A stretch of 64,000 nucleotides of DNA from NCBI GenBank assembly GCA_934122155.1, contig CAKOVX010000002.1:1437-65436 (forward strand), given 5' to 3'. The notes under the pieces were generated by a model, which was given only the letters and a program-made list of their open reading frames with translations, was not told the origin of the DNA and made no database searches. The translations under genes and the position numbers were made by a program. Positions within the stretch are counted from its first letter, which is position 1. Every line of letters starts with the position of its first letter. Of the stretch, positions 7,975 through 61,732 are shown one piece after another. The DNA is from an uncultured Clostridia bacterium (lineage in GTDB: Bacteria; Bacillota; Clostridia; TANB77; CAG-508).

Positions 7975-8220
7975 GTAGGGATAAACAAAAGTCCCCGCAC
8001 TATAAATAGTGCAGGGACGAAATCTCTTTTAGTTCCGCGGTACCACCCAGCTTGAAACTTTTATTATTGTTTCCTCTTTTCAAAATTACAGACTACTCCT
8101 ATGTGTTGGCAAAGTTATGTTCTTCTACAAAAGGCTCTCAGCGCAGTCACCTTTATTCTCTGTTAGCAACTTTTAACTCGTCGTCATATTCATCACAATC
8201 TAATAATTTTTATAATTGTG
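7975..8220 (-). promoter_or_regulatory. T-box riboswitch leader of aspS-gatCAB
   Basis: Minus-strand RNA has AGAGA and GGUGA stem-I elements, a specifier region uagaaGAACAuaac, the T-box sequence AAGCUGGGUGGUACCGCGG, and the terminator gucccugcacuauuuauagugcggggac followed by UUUUGUUU. Confidence 0.85.
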
Positions 8221-8221
8221 T

Positions 8222-8251
8222 ATTATACCTCATGAATTTCAGTTTTGTCAA
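8222..8251 (-). promoter_or_regulatory. sigma-A promoter for the T-box leader
   Basis: On the minus strand TTGACA, 18 nt, TATAAT; it sits immediately after the adhE stop. Confidence 0.6.
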
Positions 8252-10878: not shown

Positions 10879-10977
10879 TTTAAAACTTTCCTTTCTCTCT
10901 TGTGAATAATTATTTCCAATTCTTTGTAATTATATACTAATAAATATTACTTGTAAACAATATAACTATAAAAAATA

Positions 10978-11008
10978 AACCCATAGCTAATATTATTAGC
11001 TATGGGTA
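10978..11008 (-). terminator. intrinsic terminator of the 11015..11281 gene
   Basis: acccatagctaatattattagctatgggt hairpin followed on the minus strand by a T-run. Confidence 0.6.
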
Positions 11009-11014
11009 AGGACT

Positions 11015-11281
11015 TTACCTAAGTTCATTTAGAACTTTATAAATTCTTTCTGAGAGCTCACATTCAGAAATCTCACCTTTTTCAAAATCACTAATTGCTT
11101 CTTCTACTTTTTGTTGATATTCTGCGAATTCTTCTGGCCAGCTTGCATGTTGTTTTTCTAGGTTACATAGTAGTTTGGTCGTTTTTTCTACCCGCTTGTT
11201 GCTCCAATCAATATATTCAATTGAGTAGAGCAGTTGTTGCAAGAAATTAGCATAGTCTTTTTGAATCTGTGCATTCTTCAT
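11015..11281 (-). CDS. hypothetical 88-aa protein
   Basis: ORF followed by a terminator; no family recognised. Confidence 0.5.
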   Translation of the reverse strand: MKNAQIQKDYANFLQQLLYSIEYIDWSNKRVEKTTKLLCNLEKQHASWPEEFAEYQQKVEEAISDFEKGEISECELSERIYKVLNELR

Positions 11282-11422
11282 TCTGCTTCCCCCTTTAGCC
11301 CTTTTATAAAATAATATGAGTTCTTTTGTATATTATCATAAATTCAACTTTTTTTCAATAGTTATGTCTTTTTATATATGTGCATTTTTAGTTATTTAGC
11401 TTTGTTTTGTCTTACAATATAT

Positions 11423-11605
11423 TTACTTTTTATCTTCATAAAACCAATCTGTACTTTCTTTGTACTTTGTTGGGTTTTCTGCCTTAGATAAATCCTTACT
11501 TATTAAAAACAATGCAATTATATATAATATAGATAAAAATTGTACTATAAAATGTGCATAACCTAAATAAATTATATCTATAACGTCTTCTATATATGGA
11601 AGCAA
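11423..11605 (-). CDS. hypothetical small membrane protein
   Basis: 60-aa ORF with a hydrophobic core; weak support. Confidence 0.25.
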   Translation of the reverse strand: MLPYIEDVIDIIYLGYAHFIVQFLSILYIIALFLISKDLSKAENPTKYKESTDWFYEDKK

Positions 11606-11680
11606 TTTTATGGTATCATATATTAGAATCCAGCCTATTGATGCAATTGCTATATATGTAAATATACATCTTTTTTTCCT

Positions 11681-11899
11681 TTACATTTTTACATTTTCTT
11701 CTTCATCAAATAATACTATATCGTCTTTATTTAGTCTTTCTTTTTTTGCATTATTTTTTTGCATTTTTAGTATTTGATAAATTAATAACATATTTAATAA
11801 TAAATGTACTATTAATGTTGCATAACTTTTTACTTTAAATACATTATATGCTTCTATACACTCATCAATATAATATTGTTTGTCTGTTTTTAGTGCCAT
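11681..11899 (-). CDS. hypothetical small protein
   Basis: 72-aa ORF; weak support. Confidence 0.25.
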   Translation of the reverse strand: MALKTDKQYYIDECIEAYNVFKVKSYATLIVHLLLNMLLIYQILKMQKNNAKKERLNKDDIVLFDEEENVKM

Positions 11900-12194
11900 T
11901 CCTGTTATTCCAATATCTACTTTTGTTTTTTGCTTATCATTTTGAGTAGTATTTTGTGCATTTATTCTTCATTACTTATAGATGGTATGTTTCCTCTATC
12001 CATAAAAGCCATTTTGTTTTCCCCCTAACTTTCTAAGTCTCTATTAAAGTAATTTTAGCATATAAACTTTTTTAGGCAATATTTCCATTAAATTCCTTAT
12101 TATTTTATTTTTTAGCAAATTCTACTTTTCTTTCTTTAAAAATTGTTATATAATAAAGCTCGAATTAATTATAAATACAAGAGGAGTGAAGTTT

Positions 12195-14621
12195 ATGGGA
12201 TACAACTTTAAAGATGTTGAAAAAAAATGGCAAGACAAATGGTATAGTGAAGGCACTTTTTATGCAAAAAATGATCCTTCAATGAAAAAGTGGTATGGAT
12301 TAATTGAGTTTCCATATCCTTCTGGACAAGGATTACACGTTGGTCACCCTCGTAGCTATACTGCATTAGATATTATTGCTAGAAAAAAGAGAATGGAAGG
12401 ATATAATGTGTTATACCCTATTGGGTTTGATGCATTTGGTTTACCAGCTGAAAACTATGCTATTAAAAATCACGTTCATCCTAAAATTACAACTGAGAAA
12501 AATATTAATCATTTTAGAGAGCAATTAAAAGCTTTAGGTTTTTCATTTGACTGGTCTAGAGAAGTTAATACAACTGATCCTAATTATTATAAATGGACTC
12601 AATGGATTTTTATTCAATTATATAAACATGGCTTAGCATATAAAGCTACAATGCCTATAAACTTCTGTACAGGTTGTAAAGTAGGTTTAGCGAATGAAGA
12701 AGTTGTTAATGGTGTTTGTGAAAGATGCGGAAGTCCAGTTGTTCAAAAAGAAAAAAGTCAATGGATGTTAAAAATTACAGAATATGCTCAAAGATTAATT
12801 GACGACCTAGATGATGTTGACTATTTAGATAAAATTAAAGCACAACAAAGAAACTGGATTGGTCGTAGTGAAGGTGCTGAAGTTAAATTTAAACTTGCAA
12901 ATCATAATAAAGAGTTGGTTGTATACACAACAAGACCTGACACACTATTTGGTGCAACATATATGGTAGTTGCTCCAGAACATCCTATTATTAAAGAATT
13001 AGAAAATGAAATTACTAACCTAGATGAAGTAAAGGAATATCAAAGACAAGCTAGTTTGAAATCTGATTTTGAACGCGCTGAATTAAATAAAGAAAAAACA
13101 GGTGTTGAAATTAAAGGTATTAGAGCAGTCAACCCTTTAACAAATACAGAAATTCCAATTTGGGTTTCAGACTATGTTTTAATTACTTATGGTACTGGTG
13201 CAATTATGGCTGTTCCTGCTCATGATACAAGAGACTGGGAATTTGCTAAAAAGTTTAGCTTACCTATCATTCAAGTAATTGAATCTGCAAATGAAAATAC
13301 AGTTTGTGATATTGAAAAAGAAGCTTTTACAGATGTTGCAAGTGGCAAACTTGTTAACTCTGGTTTCTTAACAGGTCTATCTGTTGAAGAAGCAAAGAAA
13401 AAAGTTATTGATTATTTAGAAGAAAATAAAATTGGAACTAGAAAAGTAAATTATAAATTACGTGATTGGGTATTTTCAAGACAACGTTATTGGGGTGAAC
13501 CAATTCCTATGGTTCATTGTGATAAATGTGGATGGGTTCCACTTCCAGAAGAAGAGCTTCCATTATGTTTACCTGATATTGAAGATTATGAACCTGGCGA
13601 AAATGGTGAATCACCTTTAGCTAAGCATACTGATTGGGTTAATACAACTTGCCCTCATTGTGGTGGAAACGCAAAACGTGAGACAGATACAATGCCTCAA
13701 TGGGCTGGTTCATCTTGGTATTATTTAAGATATATGGATGCACATAATGATAAAGCTTTAGCTTCTAAAGAAGCCCTAGAATATTGGAGCCCTGTTGATT
13801 GGTATAATGGTGGTATGGAACATACTACACTTCACTTATTATACTCAAGATTTTGGCATAAGTTCTTATATGATATTGGTGTTGTACCAACTAAAGAACC
13901 TTATCAAAAGCGTACTTCACATGGTATGATTTTAGGTTCAAACGGAGAAAAAATGTCAAAGTCAAAAGGTAATGTTATAAACCCTGATGATATTGTTGAA
14001 GAATTTGGCGCAGATACATTCCGTGTTTATGAAATGTTTATGGGACCATTTGATCAAACTGCTCCATGGTCTATGGAAAGTATTCGTGGATGTGGCAAAT
14101 TTTTAGATAGAGTTTGGAATATGCAAGAATTTTTAGTTGATGGAGATAGCTATTCTCCTGAATTTGAAAAAATGATGCATAAAGCTATTAAAAAGGTTTC
14201 TTCTGATATTGAGGAAATGAAGTTTAATACAGCTGTTTCTACTTTTATGACAATGACAAATGAATTTTATAAATTAAAGAAAATAAACAAAGCAGAATAC
14301 AAAACATTTTTACAATTGTTAAATCCTTTTGCTCCACATATGACTGAAGAGTTATTTGAGATAATTGGCTCAGAAGACACAATAGCAAATACTCCATGGC
14401 CAACTTATGATGAAGCTAAAACTATTGATGATGAAATTGAAATTCCAGTTCAAGTTAATGGAAAAGTAAAAGCAACTGTATCTATTGCCTTAGACACTGA
14501 CGAAGCAATTGTAAAAGAAAAAGTTTATGAAAATCAATCAGTAAAAAATGCAATTAGTGATAAAAATATTGTTAAAGAAATTTATGTAAAAAATAAAATT
14601 TATAATCTTGTTGTTAAATAA
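12195..14621 (+). CDS. leuS: leucine--tRNA ligase
   Basis: [12 protein letters not shown] (HIGH) and KMSKSKGN (KMSKS) motifs; GAGGAG RBS before the ATG at 12195; the ORF-track start at 12186 overlaps the RBS. Confidence 0.97.
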
Positions 14622-29419: not shown

Positions 29420-30424
29420 TTATACTATATATTTAATTTCATTGCTTGGAAAATACCTTTTCATTAAATCTCTTAAAAATATTTCAGCTTCTTGCCTTAC
29501 ATCTTTGTTATATGTGTATTTTCCCTTTCCCCTTCCAGTCATTATTTCTTGATTATATAGGCTCATTTGCTTTGGAAATGCTTCTTGATTTATCATTCTA
29601 TGCACATAACTATATGTCATAAATATTATTTCAAAAAATACATCTTTTTTTACCTGTTCTGATAAGTTTTCTGCCAAATATTGTACTAATTCTGTATATT
29701 GCTTTTTCCAGTCTTCTACTAAAATTACAGGTGCAATTAGAATACCCAGTTTATATCCTGCGTCTTTTAATTTGTTTATTGCCCTTACTCTATTTTCTAA
29801 AGGTGAGGTTCCAATCTCAACTGTTCTAATTATTTCTTTTGGATTTACACTCATTCTTACTATTACTTTTCCTTTATGATCTAGTGGTAAAATTGAATCT
29901 ACCATATCAAACTTAGTTGGAAATGTTAGCAGTCCTTTTGGATTATCTTTAAAATTTTCAATTGTCCATACTAAATTATTAGTAATTGTATTTTCTAAAA
30001 TCAAATCACTATTGCTTCCTATTTCAAAAGTCAAATCTTTATCTGCCTCATTTGCTACCTTTATTATTTTTTCTAGCATTTGTTCTCTATTAACAAATAG
30101 TCTTAAATATGCACATTTGTTATAATTGCAAACTAAGTAGCAGTATAAACACATTGCTATACAGCCTGATGAAGTATATGGAACTAAAAAATCTGATGTT
30201 TTATGATTTGGTACAAATTTGTGTGTTTTTCTGACTCCAATTATTAAATTTTGTTTCATTTGTGGAAATTCACTATTCTGCTTTTTTCTCATTTCTTCTA
30301 TATTATTATGATTTTCTATTTCAATACATTGTATTCCCTTTTCTCTATATCTTTGTAAAAGTTCTTTTCCGAGTTCATAATTTTCACTGTCTTTTTCGTA
30401 ATAAACTGCTTTAGGCAAGAACAT
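29420..30424 (-). CDS. splB: spore photoproduct lyase (radical SAM)
   Basis: CIAMCLYC CX3CX2C cluster; 334 aa, typical SplB length. Confidence 0.88.
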   Translation of the reverse strand: MFLPKAVYYEKDSENYELGKELLQRYREKGIQCIEIENHNNIEEMRKKQNSEFPQMKQNLIIGVRKTHKFVPNHKTSDFLVPYTSSGCIAMCLYCYLVCNYNKCAYLRLFVNREQMLEKIIKVANEADKDLTFEIGSNSDLILENTITNNLVWTIENFKDNPKGLLTFPTKFDMVDSILPLDHKGKVIVRMSVNPKEIIRTVEIGTSPLENRVRAINKLKDAGYKLGILIAPVILVEDWKKQYTELVQYLAENLSEQVKKDVFFEIIFMTYSYVHRMINQEAFPKQMSLYNQEIMTGRGKGKYTYNKDVRQEAEIFLRDLMKRYFPSNEIKYIV

Positions 30425-40944: not shown

Positions 40945-42678
40945 TTACTTGACAAATTTATATTTTTCTTTTTTAGAATAATGAGTATGTAATAATTTAT
41001 GAGCTAATTCTCCATTAGGTTCGCCTAAAAATTCTTTGTAAACCTGCTTCAACACAGGATTTTTATGCGATTTTCTAATAACACTTTTTTCATCAATTGA
41101 ATACATTGCTTCAGCACGTTTTTTATGTACGTCAACATCTTCTTGAATTTTAGCACTTTTTATAGGTTGCCCTCCACCTGTAATACATCCACCTGGGCAA
41201 GCCATAATTTCAACAAATTGATAATCTGCCTTTCCAGATTTTATCTCTTCCATAATAGTTTGTGCATTTGCTAAACCATGTGCTACTACAACTTTTACCT
41301 TTTCATCTCCAATTTCTATTTCAGATCTCTTTATCCCATTTTCTCCTCTTACTTGTTCAAATGAAATTTTATCTAAAGGTTTTCCTGTTACAATTTCAGA
41401 AACACTTCTAAGAGCTGCTTCCATAACACCACCAGTCACTCCGAAAATTGCAGCTGCACCGGTTGCTTCTCCCATTGGATCATCAAATTTTGCATCTTCT
41501 AAATTTACAAAATCTATTTTAGCCTGTTTAATCATTTTTGCAAGTTCTCTTGTAGTAATAACCGCATCAACATCTTGCTTCATTTCTTCTCTTTGTCTTT
41601 CATATTTTTTAGCAATACATGGCATTACAGACACTACAAACATTTTACTTGAGTCTAATCCTTCTTTTTTAGCATAATATGTTTTTAGTAATGCTCCAAA
41701 CATTTCATGTGGTGATTTACAACTAGACAGATGTCCTATATTTTCTGGATAATTCATTTCAATATATTTTACCCAGCCAGGGCAACATGAAGTTATCATT
41801 GGTAAATTGTCATTATTTTGTAGTCTTTTTATGAATTCTGTTCCTTCTTCAACAATTGTAAAATCTGCACCAGTATTTGTATCAAATACTTTATCAAATC
41901 CCATTTGTTTTAATGCATTTACCATTTTTCCTTCTACATTTGTGCCTATTGGCATTCCAAATTCTTCTCCAAGCGCTACTCTTATAGAAGGAGCAGTTTG
42001 CACTATTACATAAGTATCTTTATCTTTTATTTTGTTCCATACAATTTGTGTTGAATCCTTTTCTGTTAAAGCCCCTGTTGGACATACTTCTATACATTGA
42101 CCACAAAAAGTACAATTTACATCATTTAAACTATTGTGTCCAGCTGTTGAAACACATGAATTGAACCCTCTTTCTGTTACACTTATAGCACCTATTTTTT
42201 GTACTTTATTGCACATTGAAACACATCTTCTACACAATATACATTTATTAGGATCACGTACAATAGATGGAGATTTATCATCTATTTCATAAGTATTTTT
42301 GGTTCCCTCATATACAGTTTTATCTTTATCAAATTGGTTTATAAGGTCTTGTAATTCACAATTTTCGTTTCTTACACAATTATCACAGTCTTGATGATGG
42401 TTAGATAATATTAAGTCTAACATAGTTTTTCTAGCTTCTAAAACTTCTGGTGTTTTGGTATGTACAACCATACCCTCTTCTACCTTTTGAATACAAGAAG
42501 TAGCAAAGCCTCTTTTGCCTTCCACCTCCACAAGGCACATTCTACAGTCTCCAATTTCATTTATTTCTTTTAGATAGCATAATGTTGGAATATCTATATT
42601 CAATTTTGCTGCAGCTTGTAAGATTGTTGTATCTTCTGGCACTGCTATGTTTTTACCATCTATTGTCAGATTTATCAT
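40945..42678 (-). CDS. hydA: [FeFe]-hydrogenase catalytic subunit (HydA/HndD type)
   Basis: N-terminal 2Fe-2S and 4Fe-4S domains; H-cluster motifs TSCCPGW and MPCIAKKYE. Confidence 0.9.
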   Translation of the reverse strand: MINLTIDGKNIAVPEDTTILQAAAKLNIDIPTLCYLKEINEIGDCRMCLVEVEGKRGFATSCIQKVEEGMVVHTKTPEVLEARKTMLDLILSNHHQDCDNCVRNENCELQDLINQFDKDKTVYEGTKNTYEIDDKSPSIVRDPNKCILCRRCVSMCNKVQKIGAISVTERGFNSCVSTAGHNSLNDVNCTFCGQCIEVCPTGALTEKDSTQIVWNKIKDKDTYVIVQTAPSIRVALGEEFGMPIGTNVEGKMVNALKQMGFDKVFDTNTGADFTIVEEGTEFIKRLQNNDNLPMITSCCPGWVKYIEMNYPENIGHLSSCKSPHEMFGALLKTYYAKKEGLDSSKMFVVSVMPCIAKKYERQREEMKQDVDAVITTRELAKMIKQAKIDFVNLEDAKFDDPMGEATGAAAIFGVTGGVMEAALRSVSEIVTGKPLDKISFEQVRGENGIKRSEIEIGDEKVKVVVAHGLANAQTIMEEIKSGKADYQFVEIMACPGGCITGGGQPIKSAKIQEDVDVHKKRAEAMYSIDEKSVIRKSHKNPVLKQVYKEFLGEPNGELAHKLLHTHYSKKEKYKFVK

Positions 42679-42681
42679 ATT

Positions 42682-44541
42682 TTATCCTCCTATGGCGTGG
42701 AATGGGCAAATATTTAAACACGTTCCACACTTAATACACTTCTCCTCATTAATATGATGTGTTTTACCTGGCTCTCCTGTAATTGCTCCAACTGGACAAT
42801 TACGACTACATTTTGTACATCCTCTACACTTTTCAGGATCAATTTGTATTTTTGCTAATGCTTTACATTCTCCTGTTCTGCATTTCTTTTCTTCTATATG
42901 CTCTAAGTATTCTTCTCTAAAATACTTTAGTGTTGAAATTACTGGATTTGGTGCTGATTGTCCTAATCCACATACTGAAGTCTTTGGTATGATTTTCGCC
43001 AATTCTTCTAATTTTTCTAAGTCTTGCTCTGTTGCTTCCCCATTAGTTATTTTTTCTAATATTTCAAGCATTCTTTTAGTTCCAATTCTACATGGCGTAC
43101 ACTTTCCACAAGACTCATCCACAGTAAATTCTAAGTAGAACTTAGCAATGTTTACCATACATTTTGTATCATCCATTACTATAAGTCCTCCTGAACCCAT
43201 CATTGAACCTATTTGTTTTAATGATTCATAATCTATTGGTGTATCTAAATGCTCTTTTGGAATACAGCCGCCTGAAGGTCCTCCAGTTTGTGCTGCTTTA
43301 AACTCTCTGTTATTTGGTATTCCTCCACCAATATCATAAACAATTTCTCTTAAGGTTGTTCCCATTGGAACTTCAACTAACCCAATATTTACAACATTTC
43401 CACCTAACGCAAATACCTTTGTTCCTTTTGAGGTTTCTGTCCCAATACTTGAATACCATTCTGCTCCATTTAATATTATTCTTGTTATATTTGCATAAGT
43501 TTCAACATTATTTATCAATGTTGGTTTACCCCATAAACCTGAATTTGCAGGATATGGTGGTTTTAGTCTTGGTTGACCACGTTTTCCCTCAATAGATTCT
43601 AAAAGTGCTGTTTCTTCTCCACATACAAATGCTCCTGCACCTAATCTGATATCTACGTCAAAGCTGAAATTTGTTCCAAATATATTTTTACCAAGTAGCC
43701 CATAATTTCTTGCTTGTTTTATGGCTACTCTAAATCTATCTACAGCAATTGGATATTCAGCTCTTACATAAATATATCCTTGACTTGCACCAATTGCATA
43801 ACCAGCAATTATCATTGCTTCTAATACAGAATGTGGATCTCCTTCTAAAATACTTCTATCCATAAATGCACCTGGGTCACCTTCGTCTGCATTACATACT
43901 ACATATTTTTGTTCTGATTCTACTGCTTTAGTTAATGCCCATTTCTTACCTGTTGGAAATCCTGCTCCGCCCCTGCCTCTCAGTCCAGAATCTTCTATTG
44001 TTTTAATCACTTCATCTGGTGTCATTTCTAAAAGTACTTTCTCTAATGCTTTATATCCATCAAAAGCTATATATTCGTCAATATTTTCAGGGTCAATTTT
44101 TCCGCTATTTTGAAGAGCAATTCTTTTTTGTTTTTTATAAAAAGTTAAGTCATCTAATTTGTTTACTCTAGTTCCACCTATGTCTTTGCATAATAGTCTT
44201 TCAACTATTTCGCCATCTATAATGTGCTTTTGTATAATCTCTTCACAGTCTTCTGGCTTTACCATTGCATAAAATGTATCTTCTGGTCTAATAATTACTA
44301 TTGGTCCTTTTGCACATAACCCAAAACATCCTGTTTGAATTACACTCACATTTTCTAGATTTTTCTCTTTTACTAATTTCTTAAAGTTTTCTATGACTTG
44401 TGTAGATTTTGAAGATGTACATCCTGTTCCATGGCATACTAAAATATGTTTTTCTCTTCCTCCAACTGATGTATCCACTCTAATGTTTAGTTCTTTTCGC
44501 TTTTCTCCTCTTATTTTTCTTATCTCTTCTAGAGTTCTCAA
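42682..44541 (-). CDS. hydB: NuoF-like NADH-binding flavo-FeS subunit of bifurcating hydrogenase (HydB/HndC)
   Basis: GRGGAGFPTGKKW FMN/NADH motif; C-terminal 2x[4Fe-4S] ferredoxin cysteines. Confidence 0.9.
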   Translation of the reverse strand: MRTLEEIRKIRGEKRKELNIRVDTSVGGREKHILVCHGTGCTSSKSTQVIENFKKLVKEKNLENVSVIQTGCFGLCAKGPIVIIRPEDTFYAMVKPEDCEEIIQKHIIDGEIVERLLCKDIGGTRVNKLDDLTFYKKQKRIALQNSGKIDPENIDEYIAFDGYKALEKVLLEMTPDEVIKTIEDSGLRGRGGAGFPTGKKWALTKAVESEQKYVVCNADEGDPGAFMDRSILEGDPHSVLEAMIIAGYAIGASQGYIYVRAEYPIAVDRFRVAIKQARNYGLLGKNIFGTNFSFDVDIRLGAGAFVCGEETALLESIEGKRGQPRLKPPYPANSGLWGKPTLINNVETYANITRIILNGAEWYSSIGTETSKGTKVFALGGNVVNIGLVEVPMGTTLREIVYDIGGGIPNNREFKAAQTGGPSGGCIPKEHLDTPIDYESLKQIGSMMGSGGLIVMDDTKCMVNIAKFYLEFTVDESCGKCTPCRIGTKRMLEILEKITNGEATEQDLEKLEELAKIIPKTSVCGLGQSAPNPVISTLKYFREEYLEHIEEKKCRTGECKALAKIQIDPEKCRGCTKCSRNCPVGAITGEPGKTHHINEEKCIKCGTCLNICPFHAIGG

Positions 44542-44556
44542 ATCATTACTCCCTTC

Positions 44557-45033
44557 TTATTTAGTTATTAACTCATCTAAAACTTCATCAAGTTTTTTTA
44601 CAGTAGCTCTTCCATAAACCTCTCCATTCACGGTAAATACAGGTGCTATCCCACATGCGCCTAGACAACGAGTACTGTCTATTGAAAATTTTCCGTCTTC
44701 TGTTGTTTCTCCTTCTTTAATACCTAATCTTTCTTTTAATCTATTCATTAGTTTTTCAGAGCCTTTTACAAAACATGCAGTTCCTAAACATACTGAAATT
44801 GCATATTTTCCCTTTGGCTTTAATGTAAATCTAGAATAAAAAGTAATTACTCCATAAATTTCTGCCATTGGGATATTTAAGTATTCTGATATTTCATTTT
44901 GTGCAATTTGTGGAATATATCCATATTTGACTTGCACATCATTTAGTATAGGCACTAAATTATCTTTGGCTATTGTATATTGATTCAAAATTTCTTTTAC
45001 TTCTTGTTTTAATTTTTGTTCTACACAATTCAT
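44557..45033 (-). CDS. hydC: NuoE-like 2Fe-2S subunit (HydC/HndA)
   Basis: CLGTAC...C thioredoxin-like 2Fe-2S pattern. Confidence 0.9.
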   Translation of the reverse strand: MNCVEQKLKQEVKEILNQYTIAKDNLVPILNDVQVKYGYIPQIAQNEISEYLNIPMAEIYGVITFYSRFTLKPKGKYAISVCLGTACFVKGSEKLMNRLKERLGIKEGETTEDGKFSIDSTRCLGACGIAPVFTVNGEVYGRATVKKLDEVLDELITK

Positions 45034-48744: not shown

Positions 48745-50007
48745 TTATGCATTTACTGCTTTTTTTGCTCTTCCTCTTTTTTTATGCTTTTTTGCTCCTT
48801 TAGTATATGTTCCTTCTGATATATAAGCATTTTTTAAATTCTTCATAGCATCTAATTCTACTAACTTAGCATAATAAAATTGAATAATTTTATAGTATCT
48901 GTTTACATCTTTTCTTAATTTCTTTAAGTCATTTCTTAAGAATAGTACTTGTTTTTCTTTAACATAATCAATATAATTTTTGTCTTTATTTTTTTGAATT
49001 TCTTGATATTGCCTATAAAACTCTTTATAGTTTTCTCTTTCAATAGGTTTATCCCAATAAATTTTAGTAGATAATAGTTTTACATTATATTCTTCAATTA
49101 GCATAATTAGTAAAGAATATGCTTTTTCTTGTTTACGAACTACTTTTGTATCAACAATTAAACTTCTTGTGTCATTTAATAATTTTTCATAGCATTGTTC
49201 AGCAACAATAAGAGGTAAACTGTGTGTAAATAATTTTCTACTTAAGTTTAGTAAAATCATATTTTTTTCAATTTTATCATTTTGGTCTAATTTACCTACT
49301 GTAAATTTTTCAAAGTTCTCATAATCTTCAAGAATTTCTTTGTAAATTTTATTTTCTGGTTCTTTTTTCATTTTTAATGGTAATATATTTTCAATATATT
49401 GCTCTAATGTATCAAATATTTTTGTGTATACTTCATCTTTTGCACTATGTGTTAAATTGTCAGCAAGTTTTATTGAATAATGCTTTAGTAGCCCTTTATA
49501 TAATAATTCCATTTGATATACATATAAATTTTGATATCTTTTTAATAATTGCTCTTTGTTAAGCCCTTCTACTGTTTCATAGTCTAAATTTAATAAATAC
49601 ATTTGCTTTTTGTATTTATATTCTAAATATTCAGTTTCTTTTAGGTGAACTACTGAATAATATGATGATAATGCATTTCTTTCAAATTCACTAGCTGTAT
49701 CACTTTTAACTTTTTTATATATAGAATCCATTATATATTTATCTATTGATTCTAAATATAATGCATATATATCTTCAAACCTTTTAGTAATTGCCTCTTG
49801 TTTTTCTTGGTCTTCTATTTTTTCGTTTGCTTTATAGTTTTCATAAGCTTTTAGTACATTATTTCTTTTTATCGAAATTAGCATTCCATTAATTCCGATT
49901 TTTGTTGGAGTTAATAACTTTGTAATTGTATTGCTAATTTTTGAAAAAAATGTTTTTTCTTGGTATATTCTTAAACTTCTTTCTTCCATGGCATCTGTTC
50001 CTTTCAA
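48745..50007 (-). CDS. hypothetical 420-aa helical protein with a basic C-terminal tail
   Basis: No recognised domain; ends KGAKKHKKRGRAKKAVNA; occupies the slot between yqfD and ybeY where phoH usually lies. Confidence 0.5.
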   Translation of the reverse strand: MKGTDAMEERSLRIYQEKTFFSKISNTITKLLTPTKIGINGMLISIKRNNVLKAYENYKANEKIEDQEKQEAITKRFEDIYALYLESIDKYIMDSIYKKVKSDTASEFERNALSSYYSVVHLKETEYLEYKYKKQMYLLNLDYETVEGLNKEQLLKRYQNLYVYQMELLYKGLLKHYSIKLADNLTHSAKDEVYTKIFDTLEQYIENILPLKMKKEPENKIYKEILEDYENFEKFTVGKLDQNDKIEKNMILLNLSRKLFTHSLPLIVAEQCYEKLLNDTRSLIVDTKVVRKQEKAYSLLIMLIEEYNVKLLSTKIYWDKPIERENYKEFYRQYQEIQKNKDKNYIDYVKEKQVLFLRNDLKKLRKDVNRYYKIIQFYYAKLVELDAMKNLKNAYISEGTYTKGAKKHKKRGRAKKAVNA

Positions 50008-51185
50008 AATACTATTTTTTCTTTAGTCCCGATATTTTCAAGTACTTCGTAAATCACTTCAACTTCAACTTCGTCATTTAATTGACTTGCATTTATTTTT
50101 TTATCTATAATTGATTTATCTTCTATTTGTTCTTTTAATTCTTCTTCTGCTTTTTCAATAGCTAATTGCTTTGCTTCTTCAAAAGTATATTGTACTTCTT
50201 GATTTTCGTACTCTTGATATGTTTTTTTATTTATTTCTATTGGCAGATAAAAATTTGAAAATAGTTTTAGTTTTTTACTCGTCTCTATTGTATCATAATT
50301 TTGAAATTTTGGAACCCCTTTTAGTAAATTTATTTCAAAATTATTTATCTTTACGGAATATTTATTTTTCACGTTTCCTGTTTGGATTTTTTTTGTCTGA
50401 TTTAGTTTTAATCTTTCTTTTTTTGAATACCATACTTTTGCTTGTACTTCGCCATTTGCATGTACATAATGAATTCCTGTAAATTGTCCTTCAAGCCACC
50501 CTTGTACTAGTATTGTTCCTTTTGTAACTATATCTCCTTCTTTTACTACGGCTATGCCATTTTGCGCACTTATTTTAACTATCATTGCGTCTTTTGTTGC
50601 AACAATATTACAATACTCTTGTTCTTGTATGATATCTGGTTTTAAATCTGCCTCCACTACTTTTACAATAGCATTTGTGCCTTTTATCTCTATCCCCATC
50701 CAAGCCAAGTCATCTCTTTTTAGTCTAACCTTATCTATTATTCTCTTAGTGTTTAAATTTATTTTAGTTGTTCCAATTTTAAAATTATTTTCTTCTAAAT
50801 CTCGTAGAATTTCCTCTGATGAAATTTTGTCATTTCCAGTTACTTCAATATTCCATATAAAATTTGACAATGTTATAACTGCAAATATTAAAAGAATAAA
50901 AAATATAGCAAAAATCTTTCTTTTTTTATATTTATGTAGTATAAATGGCATTCCCTTTTTTTCTTGTATTTTTACTCTGCATTTTGTTTTTTGAGCAATA
51001 TTTTTTATTCTTTTAAAATCTTTAATTCCAATGTTAACTTTTATAATTGTAGAATGTTTTCTTTGCATATTCCACAAAAATATTTTTTGGTTATTACAAA
51101 TATTTATAAATCTTTCAATAAAATATCCCTCTACTACAATCGAAACGTAACCAAAAATATAACTTAATAGTATTTTGAAATACAT
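50004..51185 (-). CDS. yqfD: sporulation protein YqfD
   Basis: 393 aa with TM segments; conserved position after yqfC. Confidence 0.8.
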   Translation of the reverse strand: MYFKILLSYIFGYVSIVVEGYFIERFINICNNQKIFLWNMQRKHSTIIKVNIGIKDFKRIKNIAQKTKCRVKIQEKKGMPFILHKYKKRKIFAIFFILLIFAVITLSNFIWNIEVTGNDKISSEEILRDLEENNFKIGTTKINLNTKRIIDKVRLKRDDLAWMGIEIKGTNAIVKVVEADLKPDIIQEQEYCNIVATKDAMIVKISAQNGIAVVKEGDIVTKGTILVQGWLEGQFTGIHYVHANGEVQAKVWYSKKERLKLNQTKKIQTGNVKNKYSVKINNFEINLLKGVPKFQNYDTIETSKKLKLFSNFYLPIEINKKTYQEYENQEVQYTFEEAKQLAIEKAEEELKEQIEDKSIIDKKINASQLNDEVEVEVIYEVLENIGTKEKIVF

Positions 51186-52358: not shown

Positions 52359-52559
52359 TCCTCCATTCTTTATCGTAATTTCTATTTACTCGACATTGAC
52401 ATTTTATAAAATTTAGCTTGACAATATAATTTATTTGAATTATATTTAATATTAGACGTCTGGAAATTTTTAGGTAATTTTATGTTATTTTGTCGAATTA
52501 CTACATTACGATTCTATCACCTTTTTATATTTATATATATTATATGGAGGTAAAATATA

Positions 52560-53266
52560 TGTTAGATTTTGTACTATGTGATGACAACTTTAATGTGCTA
52601 AATAAATTAGAAAAAACATTAGAAACAATTTTTATTGATAAGAATTTTGATGCACGTATTGTTCTTAGTACAACAGCCCCTGAAGAGTTAATTAATTTTA
52701 TGAAACACAACACTGCTCAAGTAGTAATATTAGATATTGATTTAAGATCAAATATTTCAGGGTTAGATCTAGCAAATATGATTCGTAACAAGGATAAAAA
52801 TATTTATATTATTTTTACTACCGGTCATCTAGAATATGGACTAATGGCTTATAAGTACAAAACATTTGATTACATACCTAAGCCTATTACTAGAGAACGT
52901 TTAGAAGATACTATTACTAGACTGTTTGAAGATGTATCTGGTTGCCAAACCGATTTTATAAGATTAGATAATAATAAAACCATAATTAAGCAAGATTCTA
53001 TTCAATACATACAAAAAGATGGAATGAAAACTATATTTTATACAGACACACGTGAATATGAAACAAATAGTTCATTTAAAGCTATTATGCAACAGCTGCC
53101 TGAACAATTTATGCAATGTCATAAATCCTATATTGTAAATACTAGCAAAATTGCTAGTATAGATTCTTCAAATAATACTATTGTATTAAATACAGCAGAT
53201 AAAAACAGCAAATGTTTTATTGGTCCAAAATATAAAAATAAACTTATGGAGGTTTTTAATCATTAA
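52560..53266 (+). CDS. agrA: LytTR-family response regulator (AgrA-like)
   Basis: Receiver domain plus LytTR DNA-binding domain; GGAGG RBS before the ATG at 52560; the ORF-track start at 52490 lacks an RBS. Confidence 0.85.
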
Positions 53267-53291
53267 CATTTTCCAAACAATCTGGACAGCA

Positions 53292-54617
53292 ATGACAACG
53301 CAGAATGAAATGGCATCAATAATAGTATTCTTTCCAATGTACTTTATTGATACTTTTGTAAACATGCTATTTTTCACAACTGTTTTTAACATTTCTTCTT
53401 CTAAAAAATCTAAAATTATTTATGTAATATGTATGGGTCTAATAGCCTTTTCATCTAGAACTTTTATACCAGATCCTTATGGTACATTTATTAATATGAT
53501 CTCTATTATACTTTTAATTAAATTCATTTTGAAAACTACTTGGTTAAAATCTTTCTTATCAGAATTTGTAGTAGTTGTATTAAGTATTATCTTAGAGCTA
53601 TTTTTACAAAAATTCTGTTTAGAAGTTCTTCAGATTTCATATAATTCAATAATGTACGTTCCAATATATAGATGTGGTCTTGCTTTAATAATTTATACTT
53701 TAGTTTATATCCTATATAGAATAATCAAATATTTTAAATTTTCTATTGACTTAGAAAATATGACTAAGAAAAACAAAGTTTTATTCATATTGAATTCTAT
53801 TTTAGGTATTATTGCCATTGCAACTCAAATATACTTAATGGCTTTTTATAGTAGTAATATGCCAATTATAATCACTTTGGTAAGTATTGTAAGTCTACTA
53901 GCATATTTCTTCATTAGTATATACAACATGTTAAGTATTAATAAGTTAAATACCACAACTAGAGATTTAGAAGAAGCTCAGTTATATAATAAAACTTTAA
54001 CAATTTTACATGATAGTATTAGAGGTTTTAAACATGATTTTCACAATATTGTTCAAGGCATTGGTGGTTATGCTGATAGAGGAGACTTAGAAGGTTTAAA
54101 GAAATATTATAAACAACTTATGTTAGATTGTAGTCGTACAAATAATTTAACAGCATTAAATCCTGAAGTTATAAATAATCCTGCTATTTACAATATTATG
54201 GCTACAAAATATCATAAAGCAGATGAAATTGGTGTACAAATTAACTTAGGCATTTTTATGGATCTGAATGAAATTGAAAAACATATGAAGATTTATGAAT
54301 TTACTAGAATTTTAGGTATACTTTTAGATAATGCTATTGAAGCTGCTTCTGAATGTGATGAAAAAGTAATTCATGTAAGTTTTAGAAAAGAAGAAAATAG
54401 ACATCGTTTACTTATGATTATAGAAAATACATATAAAAATAAAGATGTTGATATAGATAAAATTTTTGAAAAAGATTTTTCTACCAAATCAAAGAAGACT
54501 AATAGTGGACTTGGTTTGTGGGAAGTTAGACAAGTATTAAAGAAAAACAATAACCTAAATTTATATACTACTAAAAATGAAGAATTCTTTTCTCAACAAC
54601 TTGAAATATATTTTTAA
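53292..54617 (+). CDS. agrC: AgrC-like (HPK10) membrane sensor histidine kinase
   Basis: Six to seven TM helices, HDFHNIVQGI H-box, GHKL ATPase; start is approximate because the ORF overlaps the agrA end. Confidence 0.8.
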   Translation: MTTQNEMASIIVFFPMYFIDTFVNMLFFTTVFNISSSKKSKIIYVICMGLIAFSSRTFIPDPYGTFINMISIILLIKFILKTTWLKSFLSEFVVVVLSIILELFLQKFCLEVLQISYNSIMYVPIYRCGLALIIYTLVYILYRIIKYFKFSIDLENMTKKNKVLFILNSILGIIAIATQIYLMAFYSSNMPIIITLVSIVSLLAYFFISIYNMLSINKLNTTTRDLEEAQLYNKTLTILHDSIRGFKHDFHNIVQGIGGYADRGDLEGLKKYYKQLMLDCSRTNNLTALNPEVINNPAIYNIMATKYHKADEIGVQINLGIFMDLNEIEKHMKIYEFTRILGILLDNAIEAASECDEKVIHVSFRKEENRHRLLMIIENTYKNKDVDIDKIFEKDFSTKSKKTNSGLGLWEVRQVLKKNNNLNLYTTKNEEFFSQQLEIYF

Positions 54618-54624
54618 AAATTCA

Positions 54625-54665
54625 AAAAAGAGGTACCTGAGCAAACTCAATACCTCTTTTTTGTT
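54625..54665. terminator. bidirectional terminator between agrC and agrD
   Basis: aagaggta...tacctctt hairpin with runs on both sides. Confidence 0.6.
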
Positions 54666-54709
54666 CGTCGTTTTAAGGAAATATTTATATAATTATTTTG
54701 ACTTCAGGA

Positions 54710-54829
54710 CTAGTCTTTTTTAATTAAAGATGCAGGCATTTTTGGTTGATGGATAAGCCCCAAAACAAAGCATGCAGTATTTGTAGATTTTGCATATTTT
54801 TCTGCTAATTTAGCTAATAATTTTACCAT
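54710..54829 (-). CDS. agrD: AgrD autoinducing-peptide precursor (39 aa)
   Basis: MVKLLAKLAEKYAKSTNTACFVLGLIHQPKMPASLIKKD; GGAGGA RBS 7 nt upstream; directly downstream of agrB; Cys followed by an HQP..P.SL motif like clostridial AgrD; under 60 aa so absent from the ORF track. Confidence 0.65.
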   Translation of the reverse strand: MVKLLAKLAEKYAKSTNTACFVLGLIHQPKMPASLIKKD

Positions 54830-54893
54830 TTTAAAATCCTCCTTATATTTTTATTTTTCTATTATAAACATTGCCGGCCAATGTATTACAATC

Positions 54894-55514
54894 TTAAATT
54901 GTTTCTTCTGCATATACTTCGTAGCCATGTTTGTTATTTGTTAGTTTATATGAAATAGGTAGTACTGTTAAATTTTGTAAAAACATTCCGTAAATTATCA
55001 TGTATGAAAATTGTTTATATGGGCTAAATATTATAATTGAGAGTAAAATAACTAATGCAACATAAGCTTTTATCTTTTTAATTTTTCTTTCTTTTTTACT
55101 TAATATTGGCATATTTTCTGTGTCTGCTGGAGCATATTTAGTAATTATAAATATACTAAATATTGCTATAATTCCTGCAAAAATGTATATAATAAATTCT
55201 TGAGAAAATTGTATATATTGAGATAATATTATTGGTCCTAGATATAAAATGCTTGTTGTAATCATACAACCTAAATGAGTTTTTAAATGAAAGCCTCCTG
55301 TAAAACTTCTATATGGAGATATTAGAGAAAATAACAATATAGTTTGCCACCCCATATTTAGTAAAAATCCGATGATAAATAATATTAAAACTTTAGGTAA
55401 CTCACCAAAAATTAGCTTAATTCCAAAATTAATAATTAATTCTCTTTCTTCATCAATGTCTGGCATTTTTGCTTTTATTTTTTCTGTTATCCAATCACAA
55501 AATTTATCTATCAT
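54894..55514 (-). CDS. agrB: accessory gene regulator protein B (AgrD-processing membrane peptidase)
   Basis: About 200-aa polytopic protein with conserved His and Cys (FHLKTHLGC). Confidence 0.85.
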   Translation of the reverse strand: MIDKFCDWITEKIKAKMPDIDEERELIINFGIKLIFGELPKVLILFIIGFLLNMGWQTILLFSLISPYRSFTGGFHLKTHLGCMITTSILYLGPIILSQYIQFSQEFIIYIFAGIIAIFSIFIITKYAPADTENMPILSKKERKIKKIKAYVALVILLSIIIFSPYKQFSYMIIYGMFLQNLTVLPISYKLTNNKHGYEVYAEETI

Positions 55515-59697: not shown

Positions 59698-59880
59698 TAG
59701 TTTAGTTTTAGCGCCAGGACAGTTTTTATTTACTGTTGACGAGGTTAGAGCTTATCGAAAGACTCGGCGGATGGCTCTATGGCATGCGTTACTGTCATTA
59801 CATATTAGCAAAAAATTATAGTAATATAATATAACAAATCTAATATGAGTACGCTTTAATTTGTATACCTTACTTTAAGC
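59698..59880 (+). ncRNA. glmS ribozyme (GlcN6P-responsive self-cleaving riboswitch)
   Basis: Conserved core AGCGCCAGGAC...GACGAGG...UUAUCGAA...CGGCGGAUGGC immediately upstream of glmS; a TTGACA-17-TAATAT promoter lies at 59622..59650. Confidence 0.9.
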
Positions 59881-59899: not shown

Positions 59900-61732
59900 A
59901 TGTGTGGCATTATAGGTTATATAGGAGATAGAAAGGCCACTCCAGTTTTAATAAATGGTTTATTATGTTTAGAATATAGAGGTTATGACTCTGCTGGTAT
60001 TGCTGTTATTGAAGATGGCAAAATTGCTGTAATGAAGGATAAAGGAAGAGTTGCAAATTTAAGTTCTCTTCCTGGCATTGATGATTTAGCTTCTACTATT
60101 GGTATTGCTCATACAAGATGGGCAACTCATGGAAAACCTGCAAAGGAAAATGCACATCCACATTTAGATAATAGCGGAGAATTTGCAGTAGTTCATAATG
60201 GTATTATTGAAAATTACAATGAATTAAGAGAATTTTTAACATCTAAAGGGTATCACTTTTTATCACAAACAGACACAGAGATGATTCCTAATTTAATTCA
60301 TTATTATTACACAAATGGTATAAATGATGATGACAAATTCTTAAGAGCTGTTAAGTCTGCTGTTGATGATTTAAAAGGAAGTTATGCATTAGAAATTATT
60401 TCTAGCTTACATCCTGACAGAGTTATTGTTGTTAGAAAAGATAGTCCTTTAGTTTTAGGAAAAGGAAATGGTGAAAACTTTATTGCATCAGATATTCCTG
60501 CTGCTTTAAAATATACAAAGGAATTCTATTTGTTAGATGACCAAGAATATGCTGTTGTTTATAAAGATCATATTGATTTTTATGATAATAGCCTAACTCC
60601 TCACAGCAAAGCTGTTAAAAATATTGAATGGGATGCTACTGCTGCTGAGAAAAATGGTTATGAAGATTATATGTTAAAAGAAATATTTGAGCAACCAAAT
60701 GCAATTCGTGAGACTATTGGCTCAAGATTTAAACTTGGCGAAAAATGTAGTTTTGATGATATTGATATTTCAAAAGATTATTTGAAAAGTATTAATAAAA
60801 TATATATTGTTGCATGTGGTACAGCTATGCATGCCGGATTAGTTGGTAAAACTGCAATTGAAAAACTTTGCAGAATTCCTACCGTAGTTGATATTGCATC
60901 TGAGTTTCGTTACCGTGACCCTATTATAGATGATAAAACACTTTGCATATATATTAGTCAATCTGGTGAAACTGCTGATACTATTGCAGCTTTAAAACTT
61001 GCTAAAGCAAAAGGTGCAAGAACATTAGCTGTTTCAAATGTAATTGGAAGTTCAATTACTCGTGAAGCAGACTATACAATTTACACACATGCAGGTCCTG
61101 AAATTGCCGTTGCTTCTACAAAAGCATATACTTCACAAGTTGTTTTAATGGTAATTTTGGCTATGTATTTTGCTGAAATTTTAGGCACTTGTGACAATAT
61201 TGAATGTTTAAAAGCAGATATTTTAGATTTGCCTTCTAAAATAGAGTCTATACTTAACGAAACAAATAATATTAAAGAGTTTGCTAATAAAGTATATACT
61301 GAACATGATATGTACTTTTTAGGTAGAGGTACTGATTATAATGTTGCAATGGAGGGCTCTTTAAAATTAAAAGAAATTTCATACATTCATTCTGAGGCAT
61401 ATGCTTCAGGCGAATTAAAACATGGGCCTATTGCTCTAATTGAAAACGGTATAACTGTAATTAGTATTTTAACAGATCCTAATTTAGTTGAAAAATCTAT
61501 TAGTAATATTCAAGAGGTTATAACAAGAGGTGCTAAAACATTAGTTATTACAAATCAAAAATTATCAAATAATTCGTTTAATTATGTTATAAATATCCCT
61601 GAAACTAATAGCCTAATTTCACCTATTCTTTCAGTTATTCCACTTCAATTGCTTTCTTACTACATTGCTAAAAATAAAGGATTAGATGTTGATAAACCAA
61701 GAAATTTAGCTAAATCAGTTACAGTTGAGTAG
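59900..61732 (+). CDS. glmS: glutamine--fructose-6-phosphate aminotransferase
   Basis: MCGIIGY N-terminal nucleophile; two SIS domains; 610 aa. Confidence 0.97.
   Translation: MCGIIGYIGDRKATPVLINGLLCLEYRGYDSAGIAVIEDGKIAVMKDKGRVANLSSLPGIDDLASTIGIAHTRWATHGKPAKENAHPHLDNSGEFAVVHNGIIENYNELREFLTSKGYHFLSQTDTEMIPNLIHYYYTNGINDDDKFLRAVKSAVDDLKGSYALEIISSLHPDRVIVVRKDSPLVLGKGNGENFIASDIPAALKYTKEFYLLDDQEYAVVYKDHIDFYDNSLTPHSKAVKNIEWDATAAEKNGYEDYMLKEIFEQPNAIRETIGSRFKLGEKCSFDDIDISKDYLKSINKIYIVACGTAMHAGLVGKTAIEKLCRIPTVVDIASEFRYRDPIIDDKTLCIYISQSGETADTIAALKLAKAKGARTLAVSNVIGSSITREADYTIYTHAGPEIAVASTKAYTSQVVLMVILAMYFAEILGTCDNIECLKADILDLPSKIESILNETNNIKEFANKVYTEHDMYFLGRGTDYNVAMEGSLKLKEISYIHSEAYASGELKHGPIALIENGITVISILTDPNLVEKSISNIQEVITRGAKTLVITNQKLSNNSFNYVINIPETNSLISPILSVIPLQLLSYYIAKNKGLDVDKPRNLAKSVTVE

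Follow-up and report, generated by a model that had tools for sequence, protein, structure and literature searches.

The 64,000-nucleotide (nt) stretch of DNA analysed here, referred to as the window, comes from an uncultured Clostridia bacterium (contig CAKOVX010000002.1) and carries on its minus strand the genes aspS (7933-6185), gatC (6105-5818), gatA (5804-4344) and gatB (4318-2879), which encode a bacterial-type aspartyl-tRNA synthetase (AspRS) of 582 amino acids and the amidotransferase GatCAB. The leader in front of aspS is very probably a T-box attenuator of the standard type with specificity for tRNA-Asn(GUU); it would raise AspRS and GatCAB when tRNA-Asn is undercharged. The order aspS-gatC-gatA-gatB with adhE (10878-8269, minus strand; stop codon 8271-8269) upstream, as proposed in an initial annotation of this stretch, agrees with the NCBIfam matches, as aspS (NF001750, 767 bits), gatC (TIGR00135), gatA (TIGR00132), gatB (NF004012) and adhE each score far above the cutoff of the corresponding equivalog model. 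On the 3' side of gatB lies a long, near-perfect hairpin (2812-2870) that is A+T-rich, has at least 25 base pairs (bp) and reads alike on both strands; it is probably a bidirectional terminator and the probable end of the operon.

The region between adhE and aspS spans 335 nt on the minus strand and holds both a promoter and the T-box leader. The promoter consists of a -35 box, TTGACA (8251-8246), and a -10 box, TATAAT (8227-8222), separated by 18 nt, so that the sigma-A-type element at 8251-8222 named in the initial annotation matches the consensus at 12 of 12 positions, and transcription would start near 8215, about 7 nt past TATAAT. The gap between adhE and the -35 box is 17 nt (8268-8252) rather than the single nucleotide given previously. 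No terminator was found in this gap, as had been claimed, and since adhE therefore lacks a terminator of its own, it is reasonable to expect that read-through from adhE would also meet the T-box terminator. Within the 79-nt spacer between aspS and gatC, a promoter-like sequence, TTGTAA-17-TATAAT (10/12), is found at 6166-6138 on the minus strand; it could conceivably drive gatCAB independently of the T-box, but it is weak evidence for this, such matches being frequent in A+T-rich DNA.

The leader (8251-7981 including the promoter, minus strand) begins with a complete stem I domain at 8198-8092, which is delimited by the Rfam alignment, by covariation and by a covariance model of the stem I family (R1, 84.7 bits). 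At its base, the two halves of a kink-turn, GAUGA (8194-8190; kept in most relatives) and GGAG (8099-8096), align with the UGA...GGAG of the Rfam model and enclose the base helix UAUG 8188-8185 / CAUA 8103-8100 (helix 2; 98.9% of cells paired and four of four pairs compensatory). The specifier loop follows, with ACGAC (8184-8180) on its 5' side and UGCCAACA (8111-8104) on its 3' side according to the Rfam, MAFFT and covariance alignments, and it is capped by the helix GAGUUA 8179-8174 / UAACUU 8117-8112 as placed by the constrained folds and the covariance model. Further up, the helix CUA 8166-8164 / UAG 8127-8125 lies under the AG bulge ACAGAGAAU (8163-8155), which is nearly invariant among the leaders and contains, at 8161-8157, the AGAGA element that had been recognized at the outset. 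The distal loop UGACUGCGCUGAGAG (8149-8135) is closed by AAAGG 8154-8150 / CCUUU 8134-8130 (helix 7; 97.1% paired), and its conserved motif GCUGAGA (8142-8136) aligns with GGUGaaA of Rfam. The GGUGA string that had been assigned to this element does exist (8151-8147); it runs from the distal helix into the first part of the loop and is not the distal-loop motif.

A single-stranded linker of 18 nt (8091-8074), ending in AAGAG (RRRNG), connects stem I to stem III (8073-8054; GAAAC...GUUUC, placed by the Rfam alignment), after which comes AA, so that the flanking motif AAGAG-GAAAC...GUUUC-AA is present in full at 8078-8052. The T-box sequence AAGCUGGGUGGUACCGCGG, with its core GGGUGGUACCGCG at 8048-8036, had been correctly identified and is aligned by RF00230. 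It forms part of the antiterminator at 8048-8014, in which GGG 8048-8046 pairs with CCC 8016-8014 and GCGGAA 8038-8033 with UUUCGU 8022-8017 around the bulge UGGUACC (8045-8039), whose UGGU (8045-8042) is the predicted partner of the tRNA 3' NCCA. The intrinsic terminator (8018-7981), likewise borne out, comprises a 12-bp stem with seven G-C pairs (8018-7991) followed by UUUUGUUUAU, with the U-tract at 7990-7981, and part of its 5' arm is shared with the antiterminator's 3' strand (8022-8014).

At the curated Rfam thresholds, which for RF00230 means a gathering cutoff of 93 bits, no T-box is called in the window, and a glmS ribozyme is the sole match. In a permissive run, RF00230 aligns to 8202-8010 from end to end (model positions 1-219) with 50.5 bits, corresponding to E values of 3.4e-10 for the local search and 4.3e-08 when the whole window is searched, and the T-box core is aligned with high posterior probabilities. 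This alignment has deletions at about 40 model positions, which are those of stem II and the IIA/B pseudoknot, and the absence of these two elements, together with that of the specifier-loop S-turn, accounts for the score below the cutoff. With the covariance model built from its own stem I family, the leader gives an E value of about 1e-14. Judged from these features, the leader is a genuine transcription-attenuating T-box in front of aspS-gatC-gatA-gatB, and the identification in the initial annotation holds despite the subthreshold Rfam score.

The fold was examined in relatives, taking one genome per species, with AspRS proteins of 54-81% identity. The close AspRS relatives all belong to metagenome-assembled genomes of uncultured gut Clostridia from mouse, human (Hadza), rabbit and ruminant sources, and the same AspRS protein and leader are also present on three metagenome contigs in ENA. 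A T-box core lies upstream of aspS in about 20 relatives, the core motif being found in 21, and in all of the Asn-type aspS leaders a hairpin and a U-run follow on its 3' side. No canonical T-box reaching the Rfam cutoff was found in the loci of the 15 relatives that were scanned. Twenty stem I sequences were aligned with MAFFT, each was folded with only the invariant helices constrained, and the resulting covariance model of 25 bp recovers 22 leaders among 81 sources, namely that of the window, the aspS leaders of 19 other species-level genomes and two leaders of gatCAB-aspS loci (L022 and L024). Across these leaders, standard pairs occupy 86.9% of the cells, compared with 70.2 +/- 1.2% in shuffled alignments, and double-sided changes occur in 22 of the 25 pairs, compared with a shuffle mean of 13.1; none of 500 shuffles reached either value. 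When the 3' partners were slid by 1-3 columns, only 32-52% of the cells remained paired. The alignment used for these figures was fitted to the model and so favours the structure, and the same helices are obtained from the plain MAFFT alignment with individual folds. The helix over the specifier loop is an example, as its sequence differs from relative to relative while the pairing is kept (UUUAUUA/UAAUAAA, UUGCUA/UAGCAA, CAAUUA/UAAUUG and others), and AGAGA and GCUGAGA are conserved among the leaders. The predicted stem I fold is thus fixed by comparison with the leaders of the relatives.

Within this fold, the alignment to Rfam, the MAFFT alignment of 20 leaders, the constrained folds, the covariance alignment of 22 leaders and the positional rule of TBDB, by which the specifier comprises nucleotides 2-4 of the specifier bulge counted from its 3' end, all give AAC (Asn) at 8107-8105, followed by the purine A8104. 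In 21 of the 22 leaders, AAC and a purine stand directly 5' of a base helix of 4-5 bp that is itself followed by GGAG. The remaining leader, the more distant L062, places GAC (Asp) at exactly this position of a canonical AGGAGUA...GAA-GAC-A loop, and the column is thereby identified as the specifier. In the window, the loop has 8 nt on its 3' side in the family fold and 7 nt, as in canonical T-boxes, in an alternative fold of equal energy. The asparagine specifier of the initial annotation therefore survives as a codon and has not become aspartate on alignment to RF00230, whereas its position, AAC 8121-8119, does not: the specifier lies 14 nt further downstream.

Starting from the sequence elements, the covarying fold, the specifier position and the gene content, the established T-box mechanism predicts tRNA binding and antitermination as follows. 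Stem I would bind tRNA-Asn, with the anticodon GUU paired to the specifier AAC and A8104 stacked underneath, and the AG bulge and distal loop would dock onto the tRNA elbow. The 3' NCCA of an uncharged tRNA would pair with UGGU and stabilize the antiterminator, giving read-through into aspS-gatC-gatA-gatB, whereas with a tRNA bearing Asp or Asn the terminator stem and its U-tract would form and transcription would stop 48 nt ahead of the aspS start codon. Undercharged tRNA-Asn would in this way lead to more AspRS and GatCAB, both enzymes of the indirect route to Asn-tRNA-Asn; the genomic context suggests that the AspRS accepts tRNA-Asn. At the variable position of the T-box bulge the window has U, and the relatives without exception have U or C, either of which is able to pair with a G73 discriminator. 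In locus L024, a tRNA-Asn(GUU) with G73 adjoins a UGGU T-box, and in another lineage gatCAB-aspS is preceded by independent Asn T-boxes whose scores, 151.6 and 131.3 bits, exceed the Rfam cutoff.

Several observations weigh against this interpretation. The Rfam score of 50.5 bits is short of the curated cutoff, and stem II and the S-turn are absent although the AAC:GUU duplex is weak. Single-sequence folding of stem I or of the whole leader with RNAfold does not recover the T-box fold, and the folding energies are no better than those of shuffled sequences (z = +1.14 for stem I and -1.59 for the whole leader). When the window is taken by itself, pairing in another register, AAAGUU/AACUUU, is as stable as the family fold (-3.7 and -3.6 kcal/mol, respectively), so that only the comparative data separate the two; the assignment of AAC is the same in both. 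The AspRS has Leu and Glu at the sites of His31 and Gly83 (Pseudomonas aeruginosa numbering), reportedly an anticodon-domain signature of non-discriminating AspRS that may not hold in Firmicutes. Finally, the tRNA-Asn gene of this organism was not found, the tRNA search of the 64-kb window having returned no tRNA genes.

The rival explanations differ chiefly in which codon, if any, the leader presents. The initial annotation had placed overlapping GAA (Glu) and AAC (Asn) codons in the specifier region, resembling the NT-box of Clostridium acetobutylicum, which secondary descriptions portray with a larger specifier loop containing overlapping Asn and Glu codons. The string on which this relied, uuuguaGAAGAACAuaac, is indeed present at 8130-8114 and includes GAAGAACA at 8125-8118, which would have to be read by tRNA-Glu and tRNA-Asn with a shift of one base, as is reported for the NT-box codons. 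The GAAGAAC it contains is real and persists as AGAAGAAC in L005, L010 and L040, the closest relatives, but its place in stem I is the hinge, with the AG-bulge helix on one side and the helix over the specifier loop on the other. There, AAG 8124-8122 is bulged and AAC 8121-8119 pairs with the conserved GUU 8170-8168 (helix 5; 81.8% paired, with compensatory changes in three of three pairs), and other relatives carry AGUU/AAGUU (including L014-L016 and L020), AAAAC or GUCAAC at the same site, 14 nt away from the specifier set by Rfam, by the TBDB rule and by the GAC-carrying L062. The specifier loop itself has no GAA on its 3' side, UGCCAACA, and the base preceding AAC or GAC varies among the 22 leaders (A in 13, U in five, C in three and G in one). 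A GAAC within the specifier loop occurs, among the aligned leaders, only in L018, and the GAAAC read by many relatives looks like the GA(A) of an S-turn merged with the codon. As the loop has no GAA and the preceding base is variable, a dual Asn/Glu reading is not supported and appears highly improbable, and no second codon is conserved in the predicted specifier loop.

A shift of one base in the true loop would instead expose CAA (Gln, 8108-8106) to tRNA-Gln(UUG), making the leader a dual Asn/Gln T-box, which we consider unlikely while noting its appeal. CAAC does lie in the 8-nt 3' side of the specifier loop, an Asn/Gln pair would match both substrates of GatCAB, Asp-tRNA-Asn and Glu-tRNA-Gln, and GatCAB is required for Gln-tRNA-Gln in most Firmicutes according to published accounts. 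TBDB counts the -1 and +1 frames as possible alternative specifiers, and a one-base shift is the mechanism said to operate in the NT-box. C at the -1 position is seen in two of the four leaders with gatCAB behind aspS (the window and L013), against one of 15 without gatCAB, but by our own arithmetic, with phylogeny ignored, this association is weak (hypergeometric p of about 0.1). The -1 base is, moreover, the one that is not conserved across the family, L005 and L050 have gatCAB and nevertheless read AAAC, most of the leaders control aspS alone and have no link to Gln, and the promoter-like sequence at 6166-6138 could supply GatCAB without the T-box. Were the dual reading correct, a minimal T-box would report the charging of both clients of GatCAB and would be for Asn and Gln what the NT-box is for Asn and Glu. 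That the leader is instead a decayed remnant without function, or a Thr-specific T-box reading ACA in the +1 frame, is hardly credible. Such a reading could draw on the subthreshold Rfam score, on the missing stem II and S-turn, and on the conservation of ACA/ACG (Thr), which follows from its overlap with AAC and the purine. A remnant would not be expected to keep its fold through compensatory changes in about 20 species-level genomes, with an intact antiterminator/terminator pair in every leader. The Thr specifier was dropped as a candidate: ACA would be followed by C and not by the usual purine, L062 has GAC in the same register and not a shifted NAC, and the gene context is Asp/Asn and not Thr. 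The bulge, which reads UGGC in 11 relatives and there requires a G73 discriminator, also speaks against tRNA-Thr, whose discriminator is A or U.

As a T-box specific for tRNA-Asn, the leader can be compared with several known systems. It shares with canonical class I T-boxes (RF00230, Bacillus subtilis tyrS) the kink-turn, a codon followed by a purine, the AG bulge, the distal loop, stem III with its flanking purines, the UGGN-ACC bulge and the mutually exclusive terminator and antiterminator, and differs from them in its score (50.5 versus 93 bits), in the roughly 40 deleted positions and in having no F-box. The operon of C. acetobutylicum is the closest in logic: according to secondary descriptions, its aspS-gatCAB operon has a tRNA-Asn-dependent T-box, and the window likewise has a T-box ahead of an AspRS and GatCAB operon, an AAC specifier for Asn and a predicted attenuation of transcription by tRNA-Asn. 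Compared by description only, it differs from the NT-box in that its loop UGCCAACA has no GAA and its -1 base is unconserved, and the hosts differ as well, Clostridium sensu stricto in one case and an uncultured gut Clostridia lineage in the other. The likeness noted in the initial annotation thus extends to the operon logic and the Asn specifier and not to the two codons; the leader is the same kind of system as the transamidation T-box of C. acetobutylicum, minus the two-codon feature.

In overall shape, the leader resembles glycyl T-boxes of the glyQS type, with stem I, a short linker, stem III and the antiterminator/terminator and with neither stem II nor IIA/B. The 18-nt linker between stems I and III leaves room for neither of the latter, and with 43 nt between stem I and the T-box core in the window, and 35-57 nt for 17 of the 19 other aspS leaders, there is space for stem III only; stem II and the IIA/B pseudoknot (F-box) are accordingly absent from the window leader. 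The S-turn (AGUA on the 5' side and GAA on the 3' side) is also missing, as the loop has ACGAC 5' and UGCC 3'. Relatives have AAAG/GCGAC here, together with GA or other bases, and among the leaders the canonical AGGAGUA...GAA loop is confined to L062, L022 and L024. The hinge sequence AAGAA was considered as a stand-in for the S-turn of stem II; no evidence for this was obtained, and the geometry looks implausible. In published accounts, stem II and the S-turn are thought to help to present and check weak codon-anticodon duplexes, and loss of stem II is regarded as a glycyl trait, explained by the stable GGC:GCC pair. Unlike glycyl T-boxes, the leader described here has an AAC specifier, with two A-U pairs and one C-G pair, in place of GGC, and it lacks the AGUA...GAA S-turn as well, so that the explanation from the GGC:GCC duplex does not apply to it. 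An A/U-rich specifier in the absence of both stem II and the S-turn does not fit the published idea that stem II is lost only with a very strong duplex, and the leader, if functional, would be a useful minimal scaffold with which to probe the need for stem II. As the entire leader family lies under the Rfam T-box cutoff, threshold-based resources and standard annotation miss it.

The linkage to gatCAB varies among the relatives. Genes for GatCAB lie directly behind aspS in only four of the 19 Asn-type leaders (the window, L005, L013 and L050); in L011 they are divergent, and in the other 14 Asn-type loci none are found within 4 kb. For this reason, the predicted conserved regulatory unit is the Asn T-box together with aspS. 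The AspRS is bacterial-type with a GAD domain, and its overall similarity to discriminating and to non-discriminating enzymes of solved structure is equal. It shares 54-58% identity with the enzymes of Alphaproteobacteria, Kiritimatiellae and Victivallales and only about 40% with those of typical Firmicutes (Bacillus, Listeria, Paenibacillus and Lachnospira). This aspS, which is not of the Firmicutes type, may be an acquired second copy, as in C. acetobutylicum, which has three aspS genes, one of them T-box-regulated. At the two marker sites the window enzyme reads RDLGG...RDEET, compared with RDHGG...RPEGN in mycobacterial non-discriminating enzymes and RDLGS...RDEKN in the discriminating enzyme of Escherichia coli. 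The AspRS proteins encoded behind AAC T-boxes all have Leu, Phe or Met at the first site, and RDHGG is found in L021-L024 and in the alphaproteobacterial homologues. The sequence of the enzyme does not by itself show non-discrimination, which is argued from the Asn specifier and the gatCAB linkage. Within the 64-kb window, a phmmer search with AspRS against all open reading frames detected no AspRS or AsnRS paralogue, and Pfam searches detected no asnA, asnB, glnS or gltX, which has no bearing on the remaining genome.

The stem I model also matched two loci from uncultured 'Bacilli', L022 and L024, which lead to a related arrangement. At L024:121-5734 and L022:323-5734, a full-length Asn T-box directly precedes two to four tandem tRNA-Asn(GUU) genes, after which come gatC-gatA-gatB-aspS with almost no spacers. 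In a metagenome scan with the GatA of L024 as the query, the combination of a T-box, one to four tRNA-Asn genes and gatCAB was found at ten loci (L022, L024, L086, L087, L092, L096, L105, L106, L113 and L142). A T-box core lies directly upstream of gatC at about 17 loci (L090, L094, L098, L099, L101, L108, L111, L112, L114, L115, L117, L120, L122, L136, L149, L152 and L161), in operons of the form gatCAB(-aspS), where the readable specifiers are Asn; many other loci in the scan have no T-box. A motif search found a GAA-N(1-2)-AAC-A loop in ten of the 14 T-box-gatC loci examined, and in L113 GAAGAACA stands inside the true specifier loop. The Asn T-boxes of these gut 'Bacilli' (L022, L024, L086 and others) resemble the leader of the window in having an Asn specifier in the same register and genes of the same pathway. 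They differ in being full-length (131-152 bits), with stem II, IIA/B, the S-turn and loops of the form GAA-N-AAC-A, in the order gatC-gatA-gatB-aspS, often with tRNA-Asn between the T-box and gatC, and in an AspRS with RDHGG.

In these loci a riboswitch appears, from the gene arrangement, to gate the genes for its own tRNA ligand together with those for the charging and amidating enzymes, which could give positive feedback. A search of the accessible literature found no published precedent for T-boxes gating the genes for their own tRNA ligand. Wels et al. (2008) found amidotransferase genes without upstream T-boxes in the genomes of that time. At three of the loci (L024:23-121, L022:140-323 and L087:1630-1820), the Asn T-box comes about 20 nt after the end of a tRNA-Glu(UUC) gene, which in turn follows tRNA-Ile or tRNA-Arg. 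No plus-strand promoter-like site was found between tRNA-Glu and the T-box in L024, L022 or L087, where the T-box seems to be embedded within a tRNA operon. At L105:1711-2173, and similarly in L096, L106, L113 and L142, the hairpin after the T-box, CGUCCCUUAAGGACG, has no U-run; in loci of this type the first tRNA-Asn gene starts about 15-25 nt past the hairpin, and between the tRNA genes and gatC lies a canonical terminator.

Elsewhere in the window, the glmS ribozyme/riboswitch (RF00234, 86 bits) is located at 59699-59857 on the plus strand, upstream of an open reading frame of 610 amino acids (59900-61732) of the size expected for glmS. No T-box was found ahead of leuS (12186-14621, plus strand) in the upstream region 10880-12185, even at E <= 1, and about 900 nt of this region consist of noncoding or small-open-reading-frame sequence; a leuS without a T-box is unusual for Firmicutes, and the gene may be regulated otherwise. 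An agr-like module at 52490-55514 comprises AgrB (54894-55514, minus strand), a LytTR response regulator (52490-53266, plus strand) and a GHKL histidine kinase (53220-54617, plus strand). The window also contains an FeFe-hydrogenase cluster (40945-45033) and, among sporulation genes, those for YqfD (50004-51185) and spore photoproduct lyase (29420-30424).

In conclusion, the leader described here would extend tRNA-Asn sensing by a T-box on the indirect Asn-tRNA pathway to a second case, phylogenetically separate from the first. Across this uncultured lineage of gut Clostridia, the conserved specifier suggests that the expression of AspRS would be set by the charging of tRNA-Asn and not by that of tRNA-Asp.

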